A stretch of 19,837 nt of DNA from an uncultured Nitrospinota bacterium (GTDB lineage: Bacteria; Nitrospinota; Nitrospinia; CAJXCL01): contig CAYMVZ010000042.1 in the NCBI GenBank assembly GCA_964394335.1, positions 1-19,837 on the forward strand. Reading direction: 5' to 3'. Position numbers and translations under genes: made by a program. Of the stretch, positions 3,794 to 19,837 are shown piece after piece (within the stretch, counting starts at the first letter, position 1; every line of letters begins with the position of its first letter). A model generated the notes under the pieces. It saw only the letters and a list, made by a program, of their open reading frames with translations. It was not told the origin of the DNA and searched no databases.

Positions 3794-4168
<375 letters not shown>

Positions 4169-4261: not shown

Positions 4262-5563
4262 ATGAAGCACAAAAAAGTAGGTTTTGTTTTATTAATTATT
4301 TTAAGTTTATTCATGTTGTCCGGTAATGTTTGGGCTGAAGAAGCGCCCAAACTTGATACTGGTGATACAGCCTGGATGTTGACTTCCACAATCCTTGTGC
4401 TGTTCATGACAATCCCCGGTTTGTCGCTGTTTTATGCCGGGCTGGTGCGTACCAAGAATGTGTTATCGGTGATGATGCAATGTTTTGCCATTACCGCCCT
4501 GATGACAATCTTGTGGACACTTTTTGGTTACAGCATTGCTTTTGGTGAGGGGGGCGCCCTTTGGGGCGGTCTGGGTAAGGCATTTCTCAAAGGTATAGGG
4601 GTAGACACTTTAAGCGGTACGATTCCTGAGACAGTGTTTGTCTGCTTCCAGATGACCTTTGCTATCATCACACCTGCGCTGATTGTTGGAGCTTTTGCTG
4701 AGCGCATGAAGTTTTCCGCTGTTCTGATTTTCATGAGCTTGTGGTTACTCATCGTTTATGCCCCGATTTGCCACTGGGTATGGGGTGGAGGCTGGCTTGG
4801 TAGTTGGGGTGTGCTGGATTTTGCCGGCGGCACTGTGGTGCATATTAATGCCGGTATTGCAGCCCTGGTTCTCTGTCTCGTTCTTGGAAAGCGTAAAGGT
4901 TTTCCGGAGACGGCAATGCCGCCTCATAATCTTGTTTTCACCGTGGTTGGCGCCTCAATGCTGTGGGTTGGCTGGTTTGGTTTTAATGCGGGCAGTGAAT
5001 TAGCGGCTGATGGCGTTGCCGGCATGGCCATGGCTGTGACTCAGATTGCCACCGCTGCTGCGGCTTTGGCCTGGATGTTCGCGGAATGGATTGGCCATGG
5101 CAAACCCAGTGCGTTGGGAATTGCTACAGGCGCTGTAGCAGGTCTGGTTGCAATTACACCTGCATCAGGTTCAGTTGGTCCCATGGGAGCTATCGCCATT
5201 GGTGCTGCATCTGGCGTGGGATGCTTTTTCGCCGCCACCACTATCAAGCGTGCGATGGGTTATGACGATTCCCTGGATGCCTTTGGGGTACATGGAGTCG
5301 GTGGTGCCATCGGTGCGATCCTGACAGGCATCTTCTCGGCTAAATCCCTGGGTGGAAGTGGCCTGGGCGACGGAAATGCGGGTATCGCCGCTCAACTGGT
5401 AGCCCAGTCTGTTGGTGTGATCGCAACGATCATTTACTCAGGCATTGGAAGCTTTATTATCTTGAAGATCACAGATGCTATTGTCGGTCTCAGGGTATCT
5501 GAAGAAGAAGAGGTTACCGGTCTGGACCTCAGCCTGCATGACGAAAAAGGCTACAATTTCTAA
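4262..5563 (+). CDS. amtB: ammonium transporter, Amt/AmtB family
   Basis: 433 aa with a signal peptide (MKHKKVGFVLLIILSLFMLSGNVWA). It has the Amt signature DFAGGTVVHINAG, 11 TM-like segments, and a GGAGGG RBS. The coding sequence is markedly GC-rich (about 53-60% in sampled 60-nt lines) relative to its flanks. Confidence 0.9.
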   Translation: MKHKKVGFVLLIILSLFMLSGNVWAEEAPKLDTGDTAWMLTSTILVLFMTIPGLSLFYAGLVRTKNVLSVMMQCFAITALMTILWTLFGYSIAFGEGGALWGGLGKAFLKGIGVDTLSGTIPETVFVCFQMTFAIITPALIVGAFAERMKFSAVLIFMSLWLLIVYAPICHWVWGGGWLGSWGVLDFAGGTVVHINAGIAALVLCLVLGKRKGFPETAMPPHNLVFTVVGASMLWVGWFGFNAGSELAADGVAGMAMAVTQIATAAAALAWMFAEWIGHGKPSALGIATGAVAGLVAITPASGSVGPMGAIAIGAASGVGCFFAATTIKRAMGYDDSLDAFGVHGVGGAIGAILTGIFSAKSLGGSGLGDGNAGIAAQLVAQSVGVIATIIYSGIGSFIILKITDAIVGLRVSEEEEVTGLDLSLHDEKGYNF

Positions 5564-5642
5564 AGCTATAGCGTTTTAGTTTGGACGGTTTAACCTGTAG
5601 AATGTCAAAGTTAATGACACTCCCCACCTGGCGGAGTCTGCA

Positions 5643-5681
5643 ATATGGGACACACCTTTATGGTGTGTCCCATATTTTTAT
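5643..5681 (+). terminator. rho-independent terminator after amtB
   Basis: A perfect 14-bp inverted repeat: atatgggacacacc (5643-5656), a 5-nt loop, then ggtgtgtcccatat (5662-5675), followed by TTTTTA. Confidence 0.7.
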
Positions 5682-5691
5682 TACCTAAATC

Positions 5692-5722
5692 TTGCATGAT
5701 GAATTTTGGTATTCATAATGCG
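5692..5722 (+). promoter_or_regulatory. candidate glnA promoter region with overlapping sigma-70-like and sigma-54-like elements
   Basis: The sigma-70-like element is TTGCAT (5692-5697), a 16-nt spacer, then CATAAT (5714-5719). The overlapping sigma-54-like element is TGGTAT-N5-ATGCG, with GG at 5708-5709 and GC at 5720-5721 at the correct spacing but with weak flanks. Sequence inspection only. Confidence 0.35.
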
Positions 5723-5836
5723 AAAAAGCCACAATCAAAATTCTTCCTTTACAAAAATTTTCGATTGTGGTAGCATCTGGCATTTTATTCACTGTCAACT
5801 AATAATTGATAACTTTTTTAGGAGGGAAAATTTGTT

Positions 5837-7249
5837 ATGACACCAAAGGAGGTATTGGCATTTGCGAAAAAAAACAAGGCTGTCATGCTTGACGTCAGAT
5901 TTATGGATTTTCTTGGGTTATGGCAGCACTTCTCAGTCCCTGTTTCTGAATTGGATGAAAGTGTTTTTGAGGATGGATACGGATTTGACGGTTCCAGCAT
6001 CAGAGGCTGGCAGCCCATTCATGCCAGTGACATGCTGGTTATTCCTGATCCGGCTACAGCAGTTATGGATCCCTTTACACAGCACCCGACCCTTACCATG
6101 ATCTGCAATATTGTAGACCCAATCACAAAAGAAAAATACTCCAGGGATCCAAGAAATATTTCACAGAAGGCTGAAGCTTATCTGAAATCCACCGGGATCG
6201 CGGATACTGCTTATTTTGGTCCTGAGGCAGAGTTTTTTATTTTTGATGATATAAGATTCGACTCGGCAGAGCAGCACAGCTTTTATCATATAGATTCTGT
6301 AGAAGCACAGTGGAACACAGGCCGTGAGGAAAACCCGAACCTGGGGTATAAACCAAGATATAAAGAAGGTTACTTCCCTTGCCCTCCTTTTGATACTTTG
6401 CAGGATATCAGGACGGAAATGGTCCTGGTTATGGAACAGATCGGAATGAGCGTGGAGTGTCAGCATCACGAGGTTGCAACAGCCGGTCAGGGAGAAATAG
6501 ATATGAAATTCTCCCCCCTGACAAAAATGGGGGACAACCTAATGTGGTATAAACACATTGTTAAAAACGTAGCGAAAAGACATAATAAAACAGTTACATT
6601 TATGCCAAAGCCGATCTGGAATGACAATGGCTCAGGTATGCACACCCACCAGAGTCTTTGGAAAGGGAACAAACCTCTTTTTGCCGGGAGCAAATACGGT
6701 GGGTTAAGTGATACTGCTTTACATTATATCGGTGGTGTCTTAAAACATGCTTCGGCTTTATGTGCTTTTAGCAATCCAACAACCAACTCATACAAAAGGT
6801 TGGTACCTGGTTTTGAAGCGCCGGTTAACCTGGCTTATTCCAGCCGAAACAGGAGCGCCTGCGTAAGAATACCGATGTATTCTCCAAGTCCAAAAGCCAA
6901 GAGGGCGGAATTGAGATTTCCAGATCCTTCCTGTAATGGATATATGGCCTTTTCCGCTATGCTTATGGCCGGGCTGGACGGAATTGAAAATAAAATCGAT
7001 CCGGGAGATCCATTGGATAAAGATATTTACGCGCTCGGACCTGAAGAATTGGCCGCTGTTCCAAAAGTTCCGGGATCCTTAGAAGAAGCGCTGGTTGCCC
7101 TGGAAAAAGATAATGAATTTTTGTTGAAGGGAGATGTCTTTACCCAGGACGCAATCGACATGTGGCTGGAATATAAAAGGGAAAATGAAATTAATGCGAT
7201 GGCATTAAGACCACATCCTTTTGAATTTGAGCTTTATTATGATGTCTAA
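5837..7249 (+). CDS. glnA: glutamine synthetase type I
   Basis: 470 aa with an AGGAGGG RBS 9 nt upstream. The GS-I motifs [18 protein letters not shown] and [15 protein letters not shown] are present. A conserved Tyr in [11 protein letters not shown] corresponds to the adenylylation site of E. coli GS. Confidence 0.93.
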
Positions 7250-7310: not shown

Positions 7311-7472
7311 TTGTACGGTAATATTAGATCAGATTCGCCCCGTTAATCGTGACTTTAAATATTTTTTTAGCTTCTCGATTACTTCGAGATTACTCAAGAT
7401 AGAGAAAATTGAATAATGAAGTTATCTTGAAGCAATCGTGAAACAAAAATGAAGTCCGAGTTTTTATTCTGG

Positions 7473-7497
7473 ATGCCCGATGGAAGCACTCGGGCAT
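7473..7497 (+). repeat. REP-like hairpin, variant member of the dispersed family (atgcccga-N9-tcgggcat)
   Basis: atgcccga tggaagcac tcgggcat has the same architecture as the attcccga-taggaacac-tcgggaat copies elsewhere in the window. Confidence 0.6.
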
Positions 7498-7504
7498 GAC
7501 AAAA

Positions 7505-7625
7505 AAGTGATGCGTTGAGGTATGGTAAAAAAGGGGGAACACTCTGGTATGGCAAAAGAGCGTTGCGCTAGGGCATGAACAAAAGAGTGGTGCGTTAGAG
7601 TATGGTAAAAGAGCGTTGCATTCCC
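7505..7625 (+). repeat. degenerate tandem repeats of about 27 bp (4-5 units)
   Basis: The units are gtgatgcgttgaggtatggtaaaaaag, ctctggtatggcaaaagagcgttgcg, ggcatgaacaaaagagtggtgcgttag and agtatggtaaaagagcgttgca. All share the (g)gtatggtaaaag and agcgttgc(g/a) cores. Confidence 0.5.
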
Positions 7626-7743
7626 GCTTGCTCCCGGCATGTCATTCTCGCATGCTTTAAGCGGGAATCCAGACATAAAACGAGTAAATGTCATCACTTC
7701 AAAGATAAGGGTATGTCAAATTAAAAATGAAATAGAAGAGAAG

Positions 7744-9498: not shown

Positions 9499-10083
9499 TT
9501 GAAAACAATTAAAACTACACGTTTACTTATTGCAGATGATCAGAGTTTTTCAAGAGATGCTTTAAAAGACGCATTAATTGAAAAAGGTTTTGATATAGCG
9601 GGGGAAGCAGCTACCGGTAAAGAGGCAATTAAATTAAATAAAAAATTGAAGCCTGATTTGATTTTTATGGACGTAAAAATGCCGGAATTAAACGGGATCG
9701 AAGCATCTCATGAGATTAACTCTAAAAACCCTGTTCCGATAATACTTTTAACTGTAAAAGATGACCGAAGTACAATAGAAAGAGCCAAGTCAGCGGGAGT
9801 AATGGCATATCTTGTTAAACCTTTTAATAAAAAAGAATTGGTTCCCAATATAGAGATTGCCATTAAACGTTTTCATGAGTTTAAAAAAGTGAAAAATGAG
9901 AATGCTGATTTAAAAGCAAAACTAAATGCAAGAAAACTCATAGAAAAGGCAAAAGGAATTCTCATGGAAAAGCATAATATTAATGAACAGGAGGCATTTA
10001 GAATGGTTCAAAAGGCTGCAATGGATAAACATACTTCAATGAAAGAGATTGCAGAGAGCATAATTATGACTGCTGATTTATAG
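9499..10083 (+). CDS. response regulator with receiver domain plus ANTAR RNA-binding antiterminator domain (AmiR/NasT-like)
   Basis: 194 aa with a TTG start and an AAGGAG RBS 5 nt upstream. The receiver domain is intact: DD (IADDQ), phospho-Asp (FMDVKMP), Thr (LLTV) and Lys (LVKPF) are present. The C-terminal KLIEKAKGILMEKHNINEQEAFRMVQKAAMDKHTSMKEIAESII matches the ANTAR helical domain. Confidence 0.85.
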   Translation: MKTIKTTRLLIADDQSFSRDALKDALIEKGFDIAGEAATGKEAIKLNKKLKPDLIFMDVKMPELNGIEASHEINSKNPVPIILLTVKDDRSTIERAKSAGVMAYLVKPFNKKELVPNIEIAIKRFHEFKKVKNENADLKAKLNARKLIEKAKGILMEKHNINEQEAFRMVQKAAMDKHTSMKEIAESIIMTADL

Positions 10084-10124
10084 TACACATACTGTTCAAA
10101 GAAGAGCAGGAATAGAGAAAAAGC

Positions 10125-10180
10125 AAAGGCGCTTTTTAATTGGATCCACTTAAGTGGAGCAATGAAAGCGCCTTTTTTTT
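10125..10180 (+). terminator. strong two-tier intrinsic terminator between the ANTAR regulator gene and amt2
   Basis: The outer stem pairs aaaggcgcttt (10125-10135) with aaagcgccttt (10165-10175). It encloses an inner perfect palindrome tccacttaagtgga (10145-10158) and is followed by T8 (10173-10180). Confidence 0.75.
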
Positions 10181-10185
10181 AGTGT

Positions 10186-10417
10186 TCAGGAATGACATGT
10201 CGGGAATGCCCGTATAGTAAGACGTATGCATTTCAAAATGACAACGCATATGTATGCCAGATTGATATTTTGCACTGTTTTGTCATTCCCAACTTGATTG
10301 GGAATCCAGATAAAAGAATTCCTGGATTCTAACTAAATCTTGTCCTCAACCTGGATTCCCGCTAAGTGCATGCGGGAATGACATGTGGGGAACATGCGGG
10401 ACTGATATGTCAGGAGC
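10186..10417 (+). repeat. cluster of REP/MITE-like repeats (GGGAATGACATGT cores, gtcattccc/gggaatcc inverted units, 67-bp unit at 10351-10417)
   Basis: Contains caggaatgacatgtcgggaatgcccg, gtcattcccaacttgattgggaat, gaatccag...ctggattc, attcccgc-taagtgcat-gcgggaat, and gcgggaatgacatgtgggga followed by acatgcgggactgatatgtcagga. The 67-bp unit recurs at 16641-16709 at about 84% identity. Confidence 0.7.
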
Positions 10418-10442
10418 TTCAATTATTTAGGTCATTAAAAAA

Positions 10443-11744
10443 ATGAAAATTTTATTTTTCTTAATACTGAGTGTTTTTCTCATTTCAGATGATAGTTTTG
10501 CCGCAAGACTTCTTACGTCTGAGGACGTTCAGAGGAATCTCAATATAGTATGGATCATTTTTGCGGCGATCCTTATTTTTTTGATGAAGGCAGGATTCGC
10601 TATGGTGGAGATTGGGTTTACCCGTTCTAAAAACGCGGTAAATGCCCTCATGAAAAATTTTGTTGATTTCGCCATAAGCGCTGTAACGTTTTGGGCAATC
10701 GGTTTTGGATTTATGTTCGGCACAACCAATGGGATATTCGGCACAGATGGGTTTTATCTCCAGGACTACATAAAAAATCTTGATCCGTGGCTTTTCGCTT
10801 TTTGGATGTTCCAGGTCGTTTTTGTTTCTTCAACGGCTGCGATTGTTTCCGGAGCTATGGCCGAACGTACCCGGTTTGTTGCCAGTCTAATGTTTACTCT
10901 ACTGCTGACTGCTTTTATTTACCCGATTTTTGGAAGCTGGGTTTGGGGCGGACTCTATCATGGTAGCGGCTGGTTGGAAAGACTGGGATTTATTGATTTT
11001 GCCGGCTCTACTGTGATCCATGCCATAGGAGGTTGGGCAGGACTTGCTGGAACAATCGTTCTCGGACCCAGGCTGGGAAAATTCAGTGAGAAAGGAGTGC
11101 TAAAACCTATTTTAGGTCATAACCTCCCTCTCGCAGCTCTTGGGACTTTGATTTTGTGGTTTGGCTGGTATGGGTTTAATGCGGGAAACACGTTGGAAGG
11201 CAATGAAAAAATAGGGTTAATTATCATCAACACCACACTTGGTGGAGCGGCCGGAGCACTTGCAGGGATGACAACTATATGGCTTATTGCAGGAAAACCG
11301 GATGCAGGCATGACTCTTAATGGAGCATTAGCCGGGCTGGTAGGAATTACTGCCGGTTGCGTTTATGTGTCGCCTTTCTGGGCAATTGTGATAGGCCTTG
11401 TTGCCGGTTGTCTTGTAGTCTTTTCCGTTAAGTTTTTCGACAGTCTGAAAATTGATGATCCTGTTGGCGCTATCTCTGTGCATGGGGTTTGCGGTGTATG
11501 GGGAACTTTAGCGGTTGGTCTCTTTAAAACCGGAGAATTATTTAATTTAAAAAATCTTAGCGTACAATTTTTAGGTTCTATAGTAGCTTTTTTTTGGTCA
11601 TTTTTTGTGGCTTATGCGTTTTTTAAATTCATCGATTATTTAGTGGGTCTTAGGGTTTCTGCTGAGGAAGAGTTTCGAGGGTTGGACTATTCTGAACATG
11701 CGGCAGGAGCTTACCCGGATTTTCACGTTACCTCTATTAACTGA
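10443..11744 (+). CDS. amt: ammonium transporter, Amt family (second, AT-rich paralogue)
   Basis: 433 aa with a signal peptide (MKILFFLILSVFLISDDSFA) and the Amt signature DFAGSTVIHAIGGWAGL. It has about 11 TM segments. Its codon usage is AT-rich, unlike amtB at 4262-5563. Confidence 0.88.
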   Translation: MKILFFLILSVFLISDDSFAARLLTSEDVQRNLNIVWIIFAAILIFLMKAGFAMVEIGFTRSKNAVNALMKNFVDFAISAVTFWAIGFGFMFGTTNGIFGTDGFYLQDYIKNLDPWLFAFWMFQVVFVSSTAAIVSGAMAERTRFVASLMFTLLLTAFIYPIFGSWVWGGLYHGSGWLERLGFIDFAGSTVIHAIGGWAGLAGTIVLGPRLGKFSEKGVLKPILGHNLPLAALGTLILWFGWYGFNAGNTLEGNEKIGLIIINTTLGGAAGALAGMTTIWLIAGKPDAGMTLNGALAGLVGITAGCVYVSPFWAIVIGLVAGCLVVFSVKFFDSLKIDDPVGAISVHGVCGVWGTLAVGLFKTGELFNLKNLSVQFLGSIVAFFWSFFVAYAFFKFIDYLVGLRVSAEEEFRGLDYSEHAAGAYPDFHVTSIN

Positions 11745-11764: not shown

Positions 11765-12307
11765 ATGAAATCTTTGCCGGAAGAAGATTCAGTTCGCAGG
11801 CTGCCGAGGCCTGCCAATAAGAAGCAGATTATTATTGCTGTCCTCGCAACGGCTTTTGTTTTGATTATTTTTTATAGCTTTACGTCAGTCTCTTATTATT
11901 ATTCATCGACAAATTATTTTTGCTCGACTCAATGTCATGAAATGGTGCAGCCCTATCAGGAGTATCTTTTGTCCAGCCATTATGACAGCAGGAAAGGTGT
12001 TGTAGCGGATTGCGCCGACTGTCATTTGCCCCCCGGGTTAGTAGATAAGTGGTTTGTAAAAACAAAACAGGGAGTCCATGACTCTCTGGTTCATTTTTTT
12101 GGTGATCCGGAAAATCTGGATCATAATGCGCTTAAAATTTCTGCAAGAAAAAATATTCATCCCGGCGCTTGTATGAAGTGTCATAAAAACCTGTTTCCTT
12201 CGGACTTGCCCCGGGGCGGTTTCAAGGCTCATAAAGCCTTTGAAAATCAGGAAGCTAATAATTGTGTGGATTGCCATGTAAACCTGGTGCATGTTTCAGC
12301 CGGTTAA
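11765..12307 (+). CDS. NapC/NirT/NrfH-family membrane-anchored tetrahaem cytochrome c (quinol dehydrogenase-like)
   Basis: 180 aa with an N-terminal TM anchor (IIIAVLATAFVLIIFYSF). It has four haem-binding motifs: CSTQCHEM (CX3CH, non-canonical), CADCH, CMKCH and CVDCH. It starts 21 nt after the amt2 stop, so the two are probably co-transcribed. Confidence 0.82.
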   Translation: MKSLPEEDSVRRLPRPANKKQIIIAVLATAFVLIIFYSFTSVSYYYSSTNYFCSTQCHEMVQPYQEYLLSSHYDSRKGVVADCADCHLPPGLVDKWFVKTKQGVHDSLVHFFGDPENLDHNALKISARKNIHPGACMKCHKNLFPSDLPRGGFKAHKAFENQEANNCVDCHVNLVHVSAG

Positions 12308-12360: not shown

Positions 12361-12510
12361 GTAAGTTCTCAATAAGTCGGGGTAAGCCAAGGTCCATAAG
12401 TTTGTCATTCCCGAATGTTCCCCGATTAGAGAGTTCGAGGACAAGCTTTATCGGGAATCCAGGAATCAGCTTGACTACTAGATTCCCGATAGGAACGCTC
12501 GGGAATGACA
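12361..12510 (+). repeat. composite REP/MITE-like element with a nested 75-bp insertion (family shared with 15122-15200)
   Basis: gtaagttctcaataagtcggggtaagccaaggtccataagtttgtcattcccga, then an insert at 12415-12489 ending in attcccga, then taggaacgctcgggaatgaca. Removing the insert reconstitutes the hairpin gtcattcccga-N9-tcgggaatgac seen intact at 15169-15199. Confidence 0.75.
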
Positions 12511-12635
12511 AGATAGGGTATAGCCAATAGTGACCTGGCCCTGAGAACAGGTTTTTTGTTTTATAATAAAATTATACTTTACACAGAAGATTCCCAGCAG
12601 CTTGCTTCGGGGAGCTTCAATTGGAGGTTATTTTA

Positions 12636-13934
12636 ATGGAAAACTCTTGTTATAAAAAAAGTAATTTTGCGGGAAGTCCTTCGCAATATTCAATTCGCAA
12701 TATTCAATTCTCAATTTTGCCTGCATTATTCCTCTGCTTATTAGCCTCCATTCTGTTTTCACAAGTGGCTCATGCGGCAAGAACAGAGGGAGAAAGGGAA
12801 ATTAGCAAAAAATGTATCCTTTGTCATCAGGAAATTTCCCCTGGGATCGTGAACGACTGGGAAAAAAGTAATCATGCGAGAAGCGACATTACTTGCATAG
12901 ACTGTCACCGGGCCGACCCGACAGATGCGGATGCATGGAAGCACGAAGGTACTTATATTTCCACTATCGTCAGCCCCAGGGATTGTTCCAAATGCCATCC
13001 CAAAGCAGTGAAAGAGTTTGTTGATTCCAAACATTCCGGAGCCGCTACCTTTTTAAAAGCTGAAGCAGGGGATAGGCATAAAGATAATATTTTGGCATAT
13101 ACAATTGAGGGAGCTGAAGCTGCTGTTGTGGGGTGCGAGAAATGCCACGGTAATGTTGTAAAAGTCAAAAACGGAAAATTTGAGCCAGGCTCCTGGCCGA
13201 ACGGTGGAATTGGCAGGGTAAACCCTGATGGAAGCCGTGGTTCCTGCACCGCCTGTCATACCCGGCATGTCTTTTCCGTTGCTGAGGCCAGAAAGCCGGA
13301 GACTTGCGGTACCTGCCACATGGGGCCCGACCACCCGCATATAGAGATATATCTGGAGTCCAAGCATGGGGTCATTTATTCCAGTGAAAAAGAGAAGTGG
13401 GATTTTGACATTCCGGCAAATTCCTGGGATGTCAAACATTTTCGAGCTCCTACCTGCGCGACATGCCATATGTCCGGCATTGGCAATTTGGAGCCGACTC
13501 ACGATGTTGGAAAGCGTCTTTCATGGGTCTTAAGGTCTCCCCTTTCCATTAAAACCAACGGCTGGCAGGTCAAAAGAGAAGAAATGAAAAAAGTCTGCCT
13601 TTCCTGTCATTCAGATGGATGGGCGGAGGGATATTATTTTCAACTTGATAATGCGATAGCTCTTTATAATGAAGAATATTATAAGCCGGTTAGAAAGGCA
13701 CTGGATGAATTATACGCACTTGGCATATTAACGAAGCAATCATTTGACGAAGAAATTGAGTTCACATGGTTTGAATATTGGCACCATGAAGGGAGAAGAG
13801 CAAGGATGGGTGCAGCCATGATGGGGCCGGATTTTGCCCAGTGGCATGGTTTTTATGAACTGGCTAAAAACCGCCTTAAACTTTTGAATGAGATAAAAAA
13901 AATGAAAAACAAAAAATTGAACTATAAGGAATAA
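12636..13934 (+). CDS. periplasmic octahaem cytochrome c (HAO/OTR-like multihaem family), putative nitrite/hydroxylamine oxidoreductase
   Basis: Eight CXXCH motifs: CILCH, CIDCH, CSKCH, CEKCH, CTACH, CGTCH, CATCH and CLSCH. A signal peptide is present (hydrophobic core ILPALFLCLLASILF, cleavage near AHA-A). The preferred start is the ATG at 12636 with GGAGG 8 nt upstream; the ORF track's TTG at 12621 has no RBS. Confidence 0.8.
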   Translation: MENSCYKKSNFAGSPSQYSIRNIQFSILPALFLCLLASILFSQVAHAARTEGEREISKKCILCHQEISPGIVNDWEKSNHARSDITCIDCHRADPTDADAWKHEGTYISTIVSPRDCSKCHPKAVKEFVDSKHSGAATFLKAEAGDRHKDNILAYTIEGAEAAVVGCEKCHGNVVKVKNGKFEPGSWPNGGIGRVNPDGSRGSCTACHTRHVFSVAEARKPETCGTCHMGPDHPHIEIYLESKHGVIYSSEKEKWDFDIPANSWDVKHFRAPTCATCHMSGIGNLEPTHDVGKRLSWVLRSPLSIKTNGWQVKREEMKKVCLSCHSDGWAEGYYFQLDNAIALYNEEYYKPVRKALDELYALGILTKQSFDEEIEFTWFEYWHHEGRRARMGAAMMGPDFAQWHGFYELAKNRLKLLNEIKKMKNKKLNYKE

Positions 13935-13937
13935 CCT

Positions 13938-15047
13938 ATGACACCGGCACTAAACAGTGAAGAAGCTTACAAAAATGTTTTGAGAGGGTTGTGGAACAAT
14001 CGCAGCGGTACTTATGAAGAATGGGAAACTCTCATTAAGGAACTCCCTCATTATGGAATGACTGAAGAGAAAGCGCGGGCCTTGGAACCAGATGTTAAAG
14101 AATCTCTCGGCGTTGTCGTTCCCTGGTCTATATTCGATAAACCCGGGTTTGAAACTTCAAAAGAAAAGATTGCAAAACGCTTCCTTTTCTTTTCGCTGAG
14201 CTTTTGTTTTTTTTTAGTAATGCTCTGGATTTACCAGAGAGTTGAACCGAAGGAAACTCAGGCCATGCACCCGGTGTTTGCTGAATCCTCTTTAAAGGTA
14301 GAAAAGCAAAGAAGTAATAAAACATTTTTGCCCTTTGACAAAATGGTGGAAATTAAAGGAGGAAACTTTCTGATGGGAAGCAGTGATGGCGACTTCGATG
14401 AAGAGCCGATTCACAGAGTTCATTTACTTCCTTTCCAATTAGCTGGATATGAGGTGACCTACAGTCAATTCCAGGAATTTATTAAAGAAAATCCTCATTG
14501 GGAAAAAGGAAAACCTGGAATGAACGAAGTGGATTTGAATTACCTGAAAGACTGGAATGGAACAGACTTCCCGAAAGGCAGGGAAAACTTCCCTGTTGTT
14601 TATGTAAGCTGGTTTGCTGCTTCAGCCTATGCGTACTGGTTTGGAAGGCGGCTGCCCACAGAATCAGAATGGGAGTATGCCGCAAGAGGAGGATTGAGGG
14701 GAATGCCATATCCCTGGGGAAAAGTATCCGAATTCTGGATCGCAAACATTAAAACAGAGGGTTTAATAAATATGCCCAAACCTGTCGGCAATTACAGCAT
14801 GAACGGGTTTAGAATTTTTGACATGGCGGGAAACGTCAGAGAATGGACAGCCGATGGTTATTCCCTTTATAATCCAGCAGAACAAAGAAATCCTCAAATG
14901 ACTACGAATCAAAGGTATAAAGTTGTCAGGGGAGGGTCCTGGGAAACTTTTGGGAGGGACTCCAGGGTATCGAAAAGGTGGAGGGAACGCCCAAATCATT
15001 GCGGGCCTGATATAGGTTTTCGCGTTGCAACCGATATTTATAGCTGA
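13938..15047 (+). CDS. FGE-sulfatase/SUMF1-domain membrane protein (NirV-like)
   Basis: 369 aa. The ATG is 3 nt after the octahaem stop, with the AAGGA RBS overlapping that stop, indicating translational coupling. It has an N-terminal cytoplasmic region, one TM helix (FLFFSLSFCFFLVMLWIY), and a C-terminal FGE/SUMF1 domain (GGNFLMGS...PVVYVSWFAASAYAYWFGRRLPTESEWEYAARGG...GNVREW...VVRGGSW...GFRVA). Confidence 0.8.
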   Translation: MTPALNSEEAYKNVLRGLWNNRSGTYEEWETLIKELPHYGMTEEKARALEPDVKESLGVVVPWSIFDKPGFETSKEKIAKRFLFFSLSFCFFLVMLWIYQRVEPKETQAMHPVFAESSLKVEKQRSNKTFLPFDKMVEIKGGNFLMGSSDGDFDEEPIHRVHLLPFQLAGYEVTYSQFQEFIKENPHWEKGKPGMNEVDLNYLKDWNGTDFPKGRENFPVVYVSWFAASAYAYWFGRRLPTESEWEYAARGGLRGMPYPWGKVSEFWIANIKTEGLINMPKPVGNYSMNGFRIFDMAGNVREWTADGYSLYNPAEQRNPQMTTNQRYKVVRGGSWETFGRDSRVSKRWRERPNHCGPDIGFRVATDIYS

Positions 15048-15121: not shown

Positions 15122-15200
15122 GTAAGTTCTCAATAACAAAGTCGGGGTAAGCCAGGGTCCCTATGTTTGTCATTCCCGATAGGAACACTCGGGAATGACA
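15122..15200 (+). repeat. REP/MITE-like element, intact copy (gtaagttctcaataa...gtcattcccga-taggaacac-tcgggaatgac)
   Basis: 79 bp, near-identical to the flanks of the 12361-12510 copy but without the 75-bp insert. It contains a perfect 11-bp-stem hairpin at 15169-15199. Confidence 0.75.
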
Positions 15201-15228
15201 GGAAGGGTGATCTCCTCAACTCTGTATA

Positions 15229-15325: not shown

Positions 15326-16549
15326 ATGGATACAGATGCTCAGGATTTAAAAAAAGAGAATGAAATGAGAAGGGAGAATGAGATTCAAAAAATGGAACCG
15401 GGAAAAAAGGGAAAATTTAAAATAATCGTGGTGGCTGTTCTTCTTGCTGCAGGAATATATTATTCATTCGGAAACAACGATGCGGAAGAATATTCCGTGG
15501 TCCAGAAATGGCCGTCTGGAAGCCTGGATGTTGTCATGAAACCCGGTTTGTTCTGGGCAGGACCTTTTTCAAATGTTACCAGATTCAAGATATCGAGTGT
15601 TGTTAAGTTTTCCAGGAGTAAAGTGGGAGAAGAGACTATTGACCAATCGATCTTTGTTCGGTTTAAAGATAACGGAACAGCTAATATTAGAGGCATTGTA
15701 AAATATCTTCTTCCTACTGATCCTGAAAAAATCCGTATGATAAAAAATGAACTGGGCAATAATGACGTTATTTCTAATAAAGTGCTTAAAAACTTCGTCA
15801 ACCAGGTCCTTGTTAGAACAGCTTCTAATTACACAAGCAGCGAATCTATACGGGATCGCTCTGCTTTTTTTAACGATGTCAATGATGGATTAAAAAGTGG
15901 GAAGGGTCCTACTGGCCGCTACTCTATGCAGATACTGGCATTCACTCTAAACAAAATAATTTACGACCAGCAGTCTCAAGCCAAATTTGACGAACAACGC
16001 CTTCTGGAACAGCAGAAAAATAACGCTAAGATTCAGGCTGAAAAAGCACAGCAGGATGCTGTTACGGCAAAAGCCGAAGGAGAAAAACTGATAGCGCTAA
16101 CAAAGGCAAGAGAAGAAAATCTTAAGTTTGAGGCCACGGTCAGGGCGGAAAAGGCTGCGGAGATTGCCAGGATCAAAGCACAGGAAGAGAAGGCAGTCGC
16201 TATTACTGGCGCTCAAAAGGAGTTTGATGTTGCTAAACTGGAACTTGAAAAGGCAAAGCTGGAAAAAGAAGTTGTACTTTTAAAGGCTGAGGGCAGACGG
16301 AGCGCTGCTTTGAAAGAAGCGGAAGGAAGAAAGGCCCTGGCAGCAGCAGACAACTCACTCGAACTCAGGCTCAAGACTCAAAAAGAGATGATGATCGGTA
16401 TGGCCCAGGCATTAAAAGATGTGAAAGTGCCCTCCGCAATAATTGGGGCGTCTGGGAAATCGTCCGGGAATCCTGTCCTCGACCTGTTTTTAATGAACCA
16501 GATAAAATCGCTAACAGATATTAACTCCACGGGAGAAACCGGGAAATAA
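15326..16549 (+). CDS. SPFH/band-7 (flotillin/HflKC-like) membrane protein with extended coiled-coil
   Basis: Preferred start is the ATG at 15326 with GGAGG 8 nt upstream; the ORF track's TTG at 15311 is less likely. It has an N-terminal TM (FKIIVVAVLLAAGIYYSF), an SPFH-like domain, and a long Ala/Glu/Lys-rich coiled-coil segment (AEKAQQDAVTAKAEGEKLIALTKAREEN...). Confidence 0.65.
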   Translation: MDTDAQDLKKENEMRRENEIQKMEPGKKGKFKIIVVAVLLAAGIYYSFGNNDAEEYSVVQKWPSGSLDVVMKPGLFWAGPFSNVTRFKISSVVKFSRSKVGEETIDQSIFVRFKDNGTANIRGIVKYLLPTDPEKIRMIKNELGNNDVISNKVLKNFVNQVLVRTASNYTSSESIRDRSAFFNDVNDGLKSGKGPTGRYSMQILAFTLNKIIYDQQSQAKFDEQRLLEQQKNNAKIQAEKAQQDAVTAKAEGEKLIALTKAREENLKFEATVRAEKAAEIARIKAQEEKAVAITGAQKEFDVAKLELEKAKLEKEVVLLKAEGRRSAALKEAEGRKALAAADNSLELRLKTQKEMMIGMAQALKDVKVPSAIIGASGKSSGNPVLDLFLMNQIKSLTDINSTGETGK

Positions 16550-16570: not shown

Positions 16571-16748
16571 CGGGAATGACCGTCTTCCTCCTCTGTCATG
16601 CCCGAGTGTTCCTATCGGGCATCTATATTCACAACTTGGTCTGGATTCCCGATAAATGCATTCTGGAATGACATGTGGGGAGCATTCGGGATTGACATGC
16701 TGGGAGTACGGGAATGACATGTTCCTGGGGCGGGAGTGATATTGTGGA
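16571..16748 (+). repeat. cluster of REP/MITE-like repeats (inverted-orientation hairpin 16598-16622; 67-bp unit 16641-16709; GGGAATGACATGT cores)
   Basis: cgggaatgac...gtcatgcccg, then atgcccga-gtgttccta-tcgggcat (the reverse-complement orientation of the family hairpin), then ctggattcccgataaatgcattctggaatgacatgtggggagcattcgggattgacatgctgggagtac, then gggaatgacatgttcctggggcggg. Confidence 0.7.
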
Positions 16749-16994: not shown

Positions 16995-19837
16995 TTATAG
17001 TTTACTTTTCCCAAAACCCCCTCCTCCGGGTGTTTTAATGATAATGGAGTCACCTTTTTTTACATCTTTAACCACTCTGTGAGGCAGTTCCACAATCTCT
17101 CCGTTTGTTTTTTTCAAAAGATTGACCCCTTTTTTTCCCGGCTTACCGTCTGCCAGGCCATAGGGCGCATAGACCCTTCGTTCGGATATTATAGAAATTT
17201 TAGCAGGTTTTAAAAACTTTAATTCTCTAATTGTTCCGTCTCCTCCCGCAAAACGACCTTTGCCGCCCGAGCCCTTTCTTAAAACAAATTTCTCAAGCCT
17301 TACTCCGGGATGCCTCATTTCCAATATTTCCGGATCTGTGATCCTGGTGTTTGTCATATGTACCTGTATACCGGAAGTACCGGGACAGCCGTCTGAGGCG
17401 CCGGAACCACCGGCAATGGTTTCATAATAGGGAGTCTCTCCTTCAACTTGAAAGAGCAGGTTATTCATTGTGCCCTGTGATGCAGCCGCTGCTTTGAGCG
17501 CTCCCAGGAGGACATCCGTTATCCTCTGCGAAGTTTCCACATTTCCTGATGCAACCGGCAAAGGGTAAACAGGACTCAGGATGGAGTCATCAGGAATGAC
17601 TATCCTAATTGGCTGCAGGCATCCGCTGTTTAATGGAATGTCCGAATCTGTTAAAGCCCTGAGAACATAAAGTACCGCGGAGCGTGTGACAGATATGGGG
17701 GTATTTAGATTATCATTTGAGTGCCCCGGCCCTGTGCCTGTAAAATCTATTTCAGCGTTGACTGTTTTCGGCGGATTAATCCCCCCCTTGATAACAACCT
17801 TTACTTTTAATAGGGTTCCATCATCAAGATGGTCTTCAAAGGCTGCTTCAAAAGGGTCGCCTGTTTTAAGGAATTGAGCGAGAGCCTGTTTTACCGAATA
17901 TGCAGCATTCTCCTTAATAAATCCCATATAATCACGAGCAGTATCCCATCCGTAAAGAGCGATGGTTTTTTTGAGTTCATGTACTCCTTTATTACAGGAA
18001 GCTATCTGGGCTTTAAGATCGGATATTCGCTCTTCCATGTTTCTTACCGGGTGTTTATGGGTTGATAGGATTTGCCTCAGTTCTTCTTCTCTTAATATGC
18101 CGTCTCGCACAAGAAGAAACCCGTCTATTAAGATGCCCTCTTCATCAATATGTTCCGCCGCGGGAGGCATAGACCCGGGAGTTATTCCGCCAATGTCCGC
18201 ATGGTGCCCTCTTGCAACGGTAAAGAAAACAATCTCATCGTTTTGGGAAAAGACCGGGCATACCACGTTCAAATCCGGCAGATGAGACCCTCCATGATAA
18301 GGGTTGTTGGAAAGGTAAATATCGCCTTGCTTGATACTCCCCTTTTCGCTTTTAATAACTGCTTTTACCGTGTCCGCCATTGAACCAAGGTGTACAGGCA
18401 TGTGGGGCGCGTTTGCAACAAGGTCTCCTGTGCCGTCAAAGACAGCGCAGGAGAAATCCAGCCTTTCTTTGATGTTCACCGAGTGGGCTGTGTTTCTAAG
18501 GGTATGCCCCATTTCAGTAGCAATACCCATAAAAAGATTGTTAAAAACCTCAAGCAAAACCGGGTCAGGTTTACCATTTTTATTGGGGTTGTTACTCTCG
18601 CTTCCAGGCTCCTGCCTGATAAGGGGGAGCATTTTTTTTACAACAATAACTCCATTTTGTTCTGCTTCAGCATCAAACCCGGGGTCAATTACTAAAGTAG
18701 AATACCTGTCAACAACAAAAGCCGGTCCTTTAACTTTTGTTTTTGGTGAGATGTTTTCTCTCAAAGACAGAGGCGCATCTACAAAACCATTGGAATAATA
18801 AATTTTCCGAATTTTCTCAGGAATACTCTTGTTCCTTAGTTTCAGTTCGGGAACAATATGCGATGTATTAAAAAAATCTCCTTTTTCTTTAGCCTCTATT
18901 CGCAAATTAACCGCTTCAACAGGTTTATTTTCAGGGTAGAAACCAAAGATCCTTTCATGCTGCTTTTTGAATGATTCGAGCACATCTTCATAGTTAGAAC
19001 ATTCTACAGTTAAAAAAGCACCAGTCCCTTCATGGCGCAAATCAATTTCTCTATTTATTAAAAAGTCTTCTTTTTTATTATTTTTTTCTTTGATTAATCT
19101 TTCTTCCATTTTATCGAACGAAGATAAAAGTTTTTTATGATTTTCTCTATTGTAAATGCAGAGCACGCTCATACTTGATTTTTTTGTTGGTTTCGAAAGT
19201 CCTATGCCGTATGCGGACATGACGCCGCCTAATGGATGAAAGATTACTTTCCCCATTCCAAGCAGGGACGCCACTTCACAGGCGTGCTGTCCACCGGCTC
19301 CACCGAAACAGACCAGGGCATAATCCCGGACATCATAACCTTTTGAGACGGATATCTCCTTTATCGCCATTGCCATCTTTTCATTGGCAATCCTGATAAA
19401 GCCAAGTGCTGCTTGCCGGGGAGAGTAATTTCGTAGAGTTCCAATATTTATTTTTTCCGTAAGGCGCTGAAATTTCTCTTTAACAATATCCTCATTCAGG
19501 GCTGAGAGCCTGTCTGAGCCAAAGGTTTGAGGGAAATGCTCCGGCGAGATCCTGCCGGTCAGTAAATTCGCGTCTGTAATTGTAAGCGGCCCTCCAAATC
19601 CATAACAGGCAGGTCCAGGGTTCGCGCCTGCGGATTCAGGCCCTACTCTCATCCTTTGCCCGTCGAACCACAGGACCGAACCGCCGCCCGCTGCCACTGT
19701 TGAAATGTTTAACATCTCCACCTGAAACTCAATGCCGCCGATGATCTTTTCATAAACTTTTCCCAGTTTTCCTTTGTATCGAGACACGTCGGTTGAAGTT
19801 CCTCCCATATCAAATCCGACAGCGCCCTTGAGACCCA
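16995..19837 (-). CDS. fused hydantoinase A/B (HyuA-HyuB) family protein, 5-oxoprolinase/N-methylhydantoinase-like; 5' end lies outside the window
   Basis: The hydantoinase-A motif DMGGTSTDV is present, followed by a HyuB-like C-terminal region. The minus-strand frame stays open to the window edge (...[17 protein letters not shown]), so the ATG at 19808 is internal and the gene is partial. Confidence 0.85.

Follow-up and report, generated by a model that had tools for sequence, protein, structure and literature searches.

We describe here a gene of the formylglycine-generating enzyme (FGE) superfamily, located at positions 13938-15047 of a 19,837-nucleotide stretch of DNA from an uncultured Nitrospinota bacterium (contig CAYMVZ010000042.1; the whole stretch is called the window below), directly after the gene of an octahaem c-type cytochrome. 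Alignment with genuine FGEs showed that the encoded protein, referred to as the FGE-like protein, is a Cys-less member of the superfamily, which from its residues should be incapable of formylglycine chemistry. The gene is kept, together with an SPFH/Band_7 gene that follows it, in every sampled member of one octahaem clade. The reading that we tentatively favour, with a probability of roughly 0.4, is that the FGE-like protein acts as a non-catalytic periplasmic adaptor and, with the SPFH scaffold, organises the octahaem reductase of this clade at the membrane. The module and its parts are as follows.

10443-11744, forward strand: Amt-family ammonium transporter, first gene of the module (Pfam Ammonium_transp, 1.9e-116).
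11765-12307, forward strand: membrane-anchored tetrahaem cytochrome of the NapC/NrfH/cM552 type, predicted quinol dehydrogenase (Pfam Cytochrom_NNT, 8.3e-30).
12636-13934, forward strand: HAO-family octahaem c-type cytochrome, epsilon-Hao/ONR-like, 432 aa from the ATG of the gene callers (mechanical open reading frame (ORF) from TTG 12621).
13926-13930, forward strand: Shine-Dalgarno-like AAGGA, 7 nt upstream of the FGE-like ATG and within the coding end of the octahaem gene.
13938-15047, forward strand: FGE-like ORF, 369 aa, ATG start, the subject of this study.
13938-14177, forward strand: N-terminal extension of about 80 aa with three helices, predicted cytoplasmic, restricted to the sub-clade of the window.
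14169-14243, forward strand: single transmembrane helix, predicted N-in signal anchor, residues ~78-102 (hydropathy scan and flank charges).
14337-15029, forward strand: FGE-sulfatase domain, predicted periplasmic, residues 134-364.
15326-16549, forward strand: dedicated SPFH/Band_7 protein, 407 aa (mechanical ORF from TTG 15311; Pfam Band_7, 1.4e-13).

The order amt, NapC/NrfH-like tetrahaem, octahaem, FGE-like and SPFH/Band_7 is shared by 11 lineages, on contigs labelled as Nitrospinota/Nitrospinae and in metagenome-assembled genomes (MAGs) labelled Planctomycetes, Deltaproteobacteria (an abundant marine type, 119 contigs) and Nitrospirae. All contigs with FGE-like homologues at 100, 81, 74, 54, 52 and 43% identity have this five-gene order, and a metagenome scan with the orthologue alignment added six loci at 51-82% identity. 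The full module is present in five of the six, and the sixth (L111) is a 1.4-kb fragment on which only the octahaem gene upstream is visible. The linked loci, by label, are L001-L012, L093-L097, L100-L104, L111 and L180, and wherever the flank is visible in them the SPFH gene comes directly after the FGE-like gene. Over this set, identity declines to 44% for the FGE-like protein and to 60% for the octahaem. No octahaem or Band_7 gene adjoins any of about 74 further FGE homologues, whose identity is 44% at most. The ORFs of 12 of these weaker homologues were inspected: in several the domain is the C-terminal module of a larger protein (460-1590 aa, of heterogeneous kinds), and three are single-domain forms of ~270-290 aa. 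Two linked loci carry additional genes: an Hcp/prismane (hydroxylamine reductase-type) gene at 1820-3469 of L096, 3.5 kb upstream of the module, and a second, more distant octahaem gene (44% identity) at 6832-8175 of L180, directly after the SPFH gene.

Starting from the cytochrome, octahaem homologues at 63, 61 and 60% identity are accompanied by the FGE-like and Band_7 genes, and those at 59, 58 and 58% identity keep amt-NapC-octahaem without the FGE-like gene. A neighbour-joining tree grouped the 11 linked octahaems in one clade, with the three NapC-linked loci that lack the FGE-like gene as its sister group. No FGE-domain ORF was detected by tblastn at 80 genome octahaem loci of 43-52% identity, including the ONR of Nitrospira moscoviensis, in the flanks as fetched (up to 6 kb). 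When the three sister-group loci were included and the fetched flanks were searched by tblastn and, over all stop-to-stop ORFs, with a profile hidden Markov model (HMM) and phmmer with NirV, 0 of the 83 unlinked loci showed an FGE-domain or Band_7-orthogroup ORF; the positive controls worked, and the profile HMM detected NirV itself at 5.6e-11. The cytochrome family as a whole therefore needs no adjacent FGE-like gene, and a general association of such genes with HAO-type octahaems is rejected. A reading made from the sequence alone, hereafter the sequence-only reading, had proposed that FGE-like partners serve a general maturation or protection role for metalloenzymes that handle nitrogen oxides, which these 83 loci leave unsupported. 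The co-occurrence of this FGE-like subfamily with multihaem cytochromes, which it had proposed to analyse, holds inside one octahaem clade and is not seen at the 83 loci outside it. The linkage to the cytochrome gene was borne out as conserved and not accidental, since it is present in every sampled member of the clade.

From this distribution we infer that the FGE-like and SPFH genes were gained jointly, once, at the base of one octahaem clade. Gained once and kept in every sampled descendant, they would constitute a dedicated accessory pair for this enzyme and not part of general cytochrome biogenesis; the pair would not be required for octahaem biogenesis in general and would add something specific to the enzyme of the linked clade.

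The sequence-only reading had missed the SPFH gene, whose presence shifts the most likely interpretation. The AlphaFold2 model of the SPFH protein (mean predicted local distance difference test score (pLDDT) 76) has residues 25-47 as a transmembrane helix, 48-213 as the SPFH domain and 215-339 as one long helix (~125 residues), and its Foldseek matches are prohibitin, HflK/C, erlin, flotillin, stomatin and QmcA. Assemblies of the prohibitin, HflK/C and flotillin type form closed cages or rings on membranes, and the SPFH protein of the window shares with the cage formers the architecture of transmembrane helix, SPFH domain and long helix. Five K/R residues precede the transmembrane helix and one follows it, which suggests an N-in, HflK/C-like orientation; the protein has zero Cys and zero His. 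The orthogroup is sharply delimited: a word-indexed search gave 26 clusters at 297 bits or more (at least 43% identity), followed by a match at 91 bits and 28% identity, and an exhaustive HMMER search of 1.84 billion representatives gave two full-length proteins at 661 and 322 bits, with the next at 137. The nearest relatives outside the orthogroup are ~30% identical, and the contigs with SPFH homologues match in size those with FGE-like and octahaem homologues. Known SPFH operons (HflK/C-FtsH, QmcA-YbbJ/NfeD, flotillin-NfeD) likewise pair the SPFH gene with the gene of an adjacent membrane-anchored partner, but that partner is an NfeD protein or a protease, whereas in the window it is an FGE-fold protein.

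The Pfam scan of the FGE-like protein detected FGE-sulfatase (PF03781) at residues 134-364 (E 1.5e-55; 189 bits, cut-off 23.3), with positions 3-254 of the 255 in the model aligned, and no other domain. Its AlphaFold2 model (pLDDT 78.7) retrieved genuine FGEs as top Foldseek matches (E ~1e-20, TM-score ~0.7 on the target), followed at lower rank by CalU17, pFGE, PorK, PvdO, ToxD, OvsA and EgtB; genuine FGEs are also the best sequence matches (E ~1e-28, ~100 bits). The transmembrane segment was modelled as a helix at residues 74-101. K/R residues are commoner on its N-flank than on its C-flank, and short orthologues have a brief N-terminus that leads directly into the helix; because both fit, an N-in topology with the domain outside is predicted. 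The N-terminal extension, with modelled helices at 7-21, 26-39 and 43-57 (pLDDT 76-90), is confined in the orthologue alignment to proteins of at least 64% identity and has no Pfam match.

Genuine FGEs are recognised by a Cu(I)-binding pair of active-site cysteines (C336/C341 in the human enzyme, C272/C277 in that of Streptomyces coelicolor). The catalytic stretch of S. coelicolor FGE (2q17), RGGSYLCHDSYCNRYRV, aligns with RGGSW---ETFGRDSRV of the FGE-like protein, in which the first copper ligand falls in a 3-residue deletion and the second is replaced by Gly339; the catalytic pair and copper ligands that the sequence-only reading had proposed to look for are thus absent. Only two cysteines occur: C90 lies in the transmembrane helix, and orthologues have S or T in place of C355. 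No Cys is invariant among the 13 orthologues. The sole invariant His in this set, H159, is also found in 92% of the non-linked relatives. Still present in the domain are the RGGSW motif and two residues of the Ca-site type, N299 and E302. Residues that are invariant specifically in the orthogroup are D205, T304, G307, L310, N324, K328, S345 and N353, the position of T304 being Cys in 23 of 24 relatives. They cluster in the C-terminal half of the domain and would fit a dedicated interaction surface.

Thus the FGE-like protein shares with genuine FGEs (human SUMF1 and the enzymes of S. coelicolor and T. curvata) the fold, the RGGS motif, the Arg residues that align around the catalytic cysteines and the Ca-site-type N/E residues, but differs in lacking the Cu(I) Cys pair, in having no nearby sulfatase client or CxPxR-type motif, and in being membrane-anchored with a predicted periplasmic domain. 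That it is nevertheless a genuine FGE, or a sulfoxide synthase of the EgtB/OvoA type, standing beside the cytochrome by chance, is exceedingly improbable. True FGEs are its best sequence and structure matches, public databases name it and its homologues 'SUMF1/EgtB/PvdO family nonheme iron enzyme' or 'formylglycine-generating enzyme' (a 100% identical protein, MEE9165617, comes from a Nitrospinota MAG), and a sulfatase gene lies ~7 kb away in L012. However, no Cys is conserved, there is no DinB domain by Pfam, and the synteny with the cytochrome is strictly conserved. All NCBIfam equivalog scores are below cut-off: EgtB 90.4 against 360, SenA 87.9 against 420, OvoA 36.5 against 400, PvdO 80.9 against 500 and GldK 103.2 against 350. 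The window and the linked loci other than L012 contain no sulfatase gene, and the [CS]x[PA]xR target motif was not found in the octahaem, NapC-like or SPFH proteins. FGE or EgtB-type identity is accordingly rejected on account of the lost Cys pair, the missing DinB domain and the sub-cut-off scores, and the public labels 'formylglycine-generating enzyme' and 'nonheme iron enzyme' are misleading and are corrected by the present result. A defence function of the FGE-like and SPFH pair against phages was also considered, and PADLOC returned no matches.

Eight CXXCH motifs and an N-terminus resembling a signal peptide characterise the octahaem protein, which matches Pfam Multi-haem_cyto (1.1e-34). 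Its matches in the PDB are 4qo5 (4.5e-47), 6h5l (1.8e-28) and the HAO of Nitrosomonas europaea (4fas/1fgj, 1.4e-26); the alignment with the latter stops at residue 374 of the query and 407 of HAO, leaving the C-terminal part unaligned, and the protein is ~110-140 aa shorter than HAO, a length that would fit a lack of the haem-crosslinking tyrosine of oxidative HAO. It is predicted to be a periplasmic nitrite/hydroxylamine reductase. The TAA stop of its ORF (13932-13934) is separated by 3 nt (CCT) from the FGE-like ATG at 13938, the two genes share one reading frame, and this junction and the amt/NapC-like junction (20 nt) are the only tight ones in the cluster. Among the linked loci, the window and L008 have 3 nt between the octahaem and FGE-like genes, in L009, L010 and L093 the two genes overlap by 4 nt, and three further loci have gaps of 5, 19 and 41 nt. 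The sequence-only reading was therefore correct in placing, downstream of an octahaem cytochrome gene, an FGE-domain protein with a ribosome-binding site inside the upstream coding end, and its single transmembrane helix agrees with the hydropathy scan and the structural model, the periplasmic orientation of the domain being a prediction.

The FGE-like protein had been called NirV-like, and we compared it with the NirV of Sinorhizobium meliloti pSymA, which is encoded directly downstream of nirK. The likeness holds in architecture and gene position: both proteins have an N-terminal anchor or hydrophobic N-terminus and a predicted periplasmic FGE domain (residues 51-285 in NirV), both are encoded right after the gene of a periplasmic nitrite reductase (an activity that is predicted for the octahaem), and neither is universal with its enzyme family. 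It does not extend to relatedness: the two proteins align with many gaps at 24% identity and 38 bits, against ~100 bits for genuine FGEs, which rules out orthology and indicates that they belong to different subfamilies whose association with a reductase arose independently. Furthermore, the partner of NirV is the copper enzyme NirK, while that of the FGE-like protein is a haem enzyme, with no NirK-like ORF in the window; NirV has no obligatory SPFH partner at the pSymA locus and the FGE-like protein has one; and NirV retains several Cys in its C-terminal half, where the FGE-like protein has none conserved. NirV with NirK is thus its nearest counterpart in architecture and gene position, and the genuine FGEs are its nearest relatives in sequence and fold.

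The mode of action probably comes closest to that of PorK and Tsi3. PorK/GldK, Tsi3 and PvdO are extracytoplasmic FGE folds without the FGE catalytic residues, as is the FGE-like protein, which is orthologous to none of them, is held by a transmembrane and not a lipoprotein anchor, and stands in another genomic context. PorK, a ring lipoprotein of the type IX secretion system, builds large rings with its partner, and the solved PorK/PorN rings are among the fold matches; Tsi3, a type VI secretion immunity protein, works through binding (bioRxiv 10.1101/2021.05.21.445229). According to our favoured reading, the FGE-like domain would be a protein-binding module, as in PorK/GldK and Tsi3, and not an oxidase, and would attach the soluble octahaem enzyme to the membrane beside its NapC-type electron donor. 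The SPFH protein, which resembles HflK/C, prohibitin and flotillin in architecture, would gather these proteins in a microdomain of the membrane, and the product of the reductase, ammonium or hydroxylamine, would be taken up via the co-encoded Amt. Four lines of evidence argue for this role: the precedents of PorK and Tsi3, in which an FGE fold serves to bind a protein or to build rings, the several close relatives that hold a Cys-less domain as the C-terminal module of unrelated large proteins, the clustering of the orthogroup-specific invariants, and the obligatory SPFH partner.

Several observations weigh against the adaptor role. The octahaems of the linked clade have no evident clade-specific insertion or docking motif, only scattered differences from the sister group. 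The called gap between the octahaem and FGE-like genes is 168 nt in one lineage (L006/L007), and translational coupling is therefore not universal. The invariant residues Ser334, Arg343 and Arg347 align with the RGGS(Y/F)...R..R that surrounds the catalytic Cys of FGEs, so that a ligand-binding or catalytic groove could persist. PvdO, a Cys-less periplasmic FGE fold, is needed for an oxidation step, and loss of the Cys pair is thus no proof that catalysis has been lost. In addition, the topologies of the FGE-like and SPFH proteins are predictions from hydropathy and the positive-inside rule, and contact between the FGE-like protein and its proposed partners is something that we infer.

A more elaborate arrangement, in which an HflK/C-like SPFH cage would stand on the periplasmic face and the FGE-like adaptor would recruit the octahaem, the NapC-type dehydrogenase and Amt into or under it, is doubtful. 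If true, it would amount to a nanocompartment at the membrane that keeps in reactive or otherwise valuable intermediates such as NH2OH, NO and NH4+ and passes the product straight to uptake.

The electron donor of the module bears on a different explanation. The NapC-like protein has four haem motifs and an N-terminal transmembrane helix at residues 17-44, and matches the NCBIfam NrfH model at 3.6e-22, under the cut-off of that model. Its first haem motif is CX3CH (CSTQCH; window 11921-11938, residues 53-58) and not CXXCH. Variants of the form CS[ST][QK]CH or CTVNCH also occur in L006, L008, L009, L010, L098 and L181, and the motif is CXXCH in L012, L094 and L180. A tie between CX3CH and the FGE-like gene was considered and rejected, the motif being present in the unlinked L098 and L181 and absent in the linked L012, L094 and L180.

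The FGE-like protein may instead be a maturation or protection factor for this clade only, acting by catalysis or as a chaperone on the octahaem or NapC-like cytochrome through post-translational modification, conditioning of the cofactor or active site, or repair after damage by NO or hydroxylamine. The tight, often overlapping junction suggests stoichiometric co-production of the FGE-like protein and the octahaem, the conserved Ser and two Arg lie around the position of the FGE catalytic Cys, and the NapC-like partner has an unusual first haem motif in several lineages. Such a role would also parallel that of NirV, known in addition from Rhodobacter sphaeroides, for which maturation or protection of NirK has been suggested and never demonstrated. 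However, the protein has no redox-active Cys pair, His cluster or target motif to work with, the octahaems of the sister group and of the 80 other loci do without such a neighbour, CX3CH does not track the gene, and the obligatory SPFH partner is left unexplained. NirV has moreover been reported as not mandatory for NirK (PMC4770552). We consider a maturation factor rather unlikely.

Less likely still is that the protein is an enzyme for small molecules, analogous to PvdO, ToxD, CalU17 and EgtB and working in the periplasm as an oxidoreductase or transferase. Its substrate might be a reactive side product or intermediate formed as nitrite is reduced (hydroxylamine, NO or nitrosated thiols), or some other metabolite of the periplasm that nitrogen-limited cells require. 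The fold matches include these proteins and OvsA, the octahaem resembles the NO-forming HAO-like enzyme 6h5l, and the Hcp/prismane gene that precedes the module in L096 hints weakly that hydroxylamine matters. On the other hand, the structural Ca-type residues are the sole candidates for metal ligands, a DinB domain is missing, all equivalog scores are far under their cut-offs, several of the nearest non-linked relatives carry the domain at the C-terminus of unrelated large proteins, as binding modules typically are, and the pairing with SPFH would remain unaccounted for. The adaptor role accommodates the last two of these points.

Regarding the enzyme itself, the families of the NapC-like and octahaem proteins suggest that the two make up a periplasmic reductase for nitrite (or hydroxylamine) that depends on quinol and is of the 'reverse HURM' or ONR type. 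It has been put forward that a NapC/cM552-type cytochrome and a crosslink-free HAO-like octahaem together reduce nitrite with electrons from quinol ('reverse HURM') and that Amt imports the product (PMC3701875), and an ONR beside NapC was described in some marine Nitrospira for assimilatory nitrite reduction (PMC12342949). The reverse-HURM/epsilon-Hao/ONR modules of Nautilia, Campylobacter and Nitrospira lineage IV share with the window a NapC/NrfH-type gene beside an octahaem of ~430 aa and the linkage to amt and nitrogen-assimilation genes; the enzyme accompanied by the pair is therefore of an already known kind. What differs is the pair, since no FGE-like or SPFH genes are reported in the described modules. 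The words 'formylglycine' and 'sulfatase' are absent from both papers, the gene-cluster description in the Nautilia paper names no such partner, and full-text searches of the accessible literature found no paper linking FGE, formylglycine or SUMF with HAO or octahaem cytochromes.

The module is part of a nitrogen-assimilation island, in the order PII, amt, glnA, porin, ANTAR regulator, amt, NapC-like, octahaem, FGE-like and SPFH. The first three genes below were identified by gene calls and Pfam on the identical contig L001 and by the ORFs of the window.

3830-4168, forward strand: PII gene.
4262-5563, forward strand: second amt.
5837-7249, forward strand: glnA, glutamine synthetase.
9499-10083, forward strand: response regulator with ANTAR output, directly upstream of the module (Pfam Response_reg, 1.9e-27; ANTAR, 1.4e-21).
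7448-7504, 7612-7674, 10351-10416, 12374-12513, 15139-15203 and 16594-16706: repeats resembling repetitive extragenic palindromes (REP-like), with core ATTCCCGATAGGAACRCTCGGGAATGACA.

This setting has to be weighed against a further possibility, that the FGE-like and SPFH proteins are a membrane-organisation or quality-control unit for Amt or for the envelope under nitrogen starvation, and that adjacency to the octahaem gene reflects co-regulation. An amt gene is present in every linked module, the whole locus serves nitrogen assimilation, and SPFH proteins classically partner membrane proteins (FtsH with HflK/C, NfeD with QmcA). A sister-group locus from a hydrothermal vent, L181, also carries a different SPFH-type protein of 584 aa after the octahaem (4766-6520), with no FGE-like gene; the match of this protein to Band_7 is weak, and tblastn finds no similarity between it and the SPFH protein of the window. 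However, the sister loci L098 and L182 keep amt-NapC-octahaem without the pair, and the pair is confined to a monophyletic octahaem clade, always directly after the octahaem gene and often overlapping it. We regard an Amt or envelope unit as improbable and retain the adaptor for the octahaem as the preferred role. L181 further indicates that the association of SPFH proteins with these reductases may be broader than that of FGE-like proteins.

The position of the ANTAR regulator ahead of the module, a trait of the sub-clade of the window, suggests control by antitermination; the leader between it and amt spans 10084-10442. The regulator is kept in L001-L004, L006, L008 and L100 and is absent in L009, L010 and L012, and other lineages use different regulators, such as a sigma-54 activator in L012. 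The REP-like repeats occupy most intergenic gaps of the nitrogen-assimilation cluster. One copy, a nested palindrome at 12374-12513, takes up the space from the NapC-like to the octahaem gene, and another, at 15139-15203, lies between the FGE-like and SPFH genes. The RNA of the region 12370-12520 folds at -52.6 kcal/mol (z = -3.8), and a role of the repeats in segmenting or stabilising the mRNA of the operon is conceivable. An Rfam scan of the window gave only sub-threshold matches, at the 3' end of glnA, and promoter and terminator scans of the window found no more sites than in shuffled sequence. At the ends of the window, a small TPR-repeat gene (151-723) contains an internal tandem duplication (218-414/470-666, 197 nt, 84% identity), and 16995-19808 on the reverse strand is the C-terminal part of a fused hydantoinase/oxoprolinase (HyuA/HyuB-type) gene of 1221 aa that extends past the window end on L001.

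Nitrospinota are major marine nitrite oxidisers that are also obliged to assimilate nitrogen from nitrite. A conserved FGE-like and SPFH pair for an HAO-type assimilatory nitrite reductase appears to be new as far as the searchable literature shows, and it provides a concrete candidate client for a bacterial SPFH scaffold, of which few are known. If the cage arrangement were true, it would be a new use of the FGE fold and of an SPFH cage in abundant marine nitrite oxidisers and their neighbours. Within the same literature it also appears new that two unrelated classes of periplasmic nitrite reductase, first NirK with NirV and now the octahaem, have each acquired an FGE-fold partner independently. 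Because of this independent recruitment, the function of NirV-type proteins may be approached from a second system with a clearer genetic signature.

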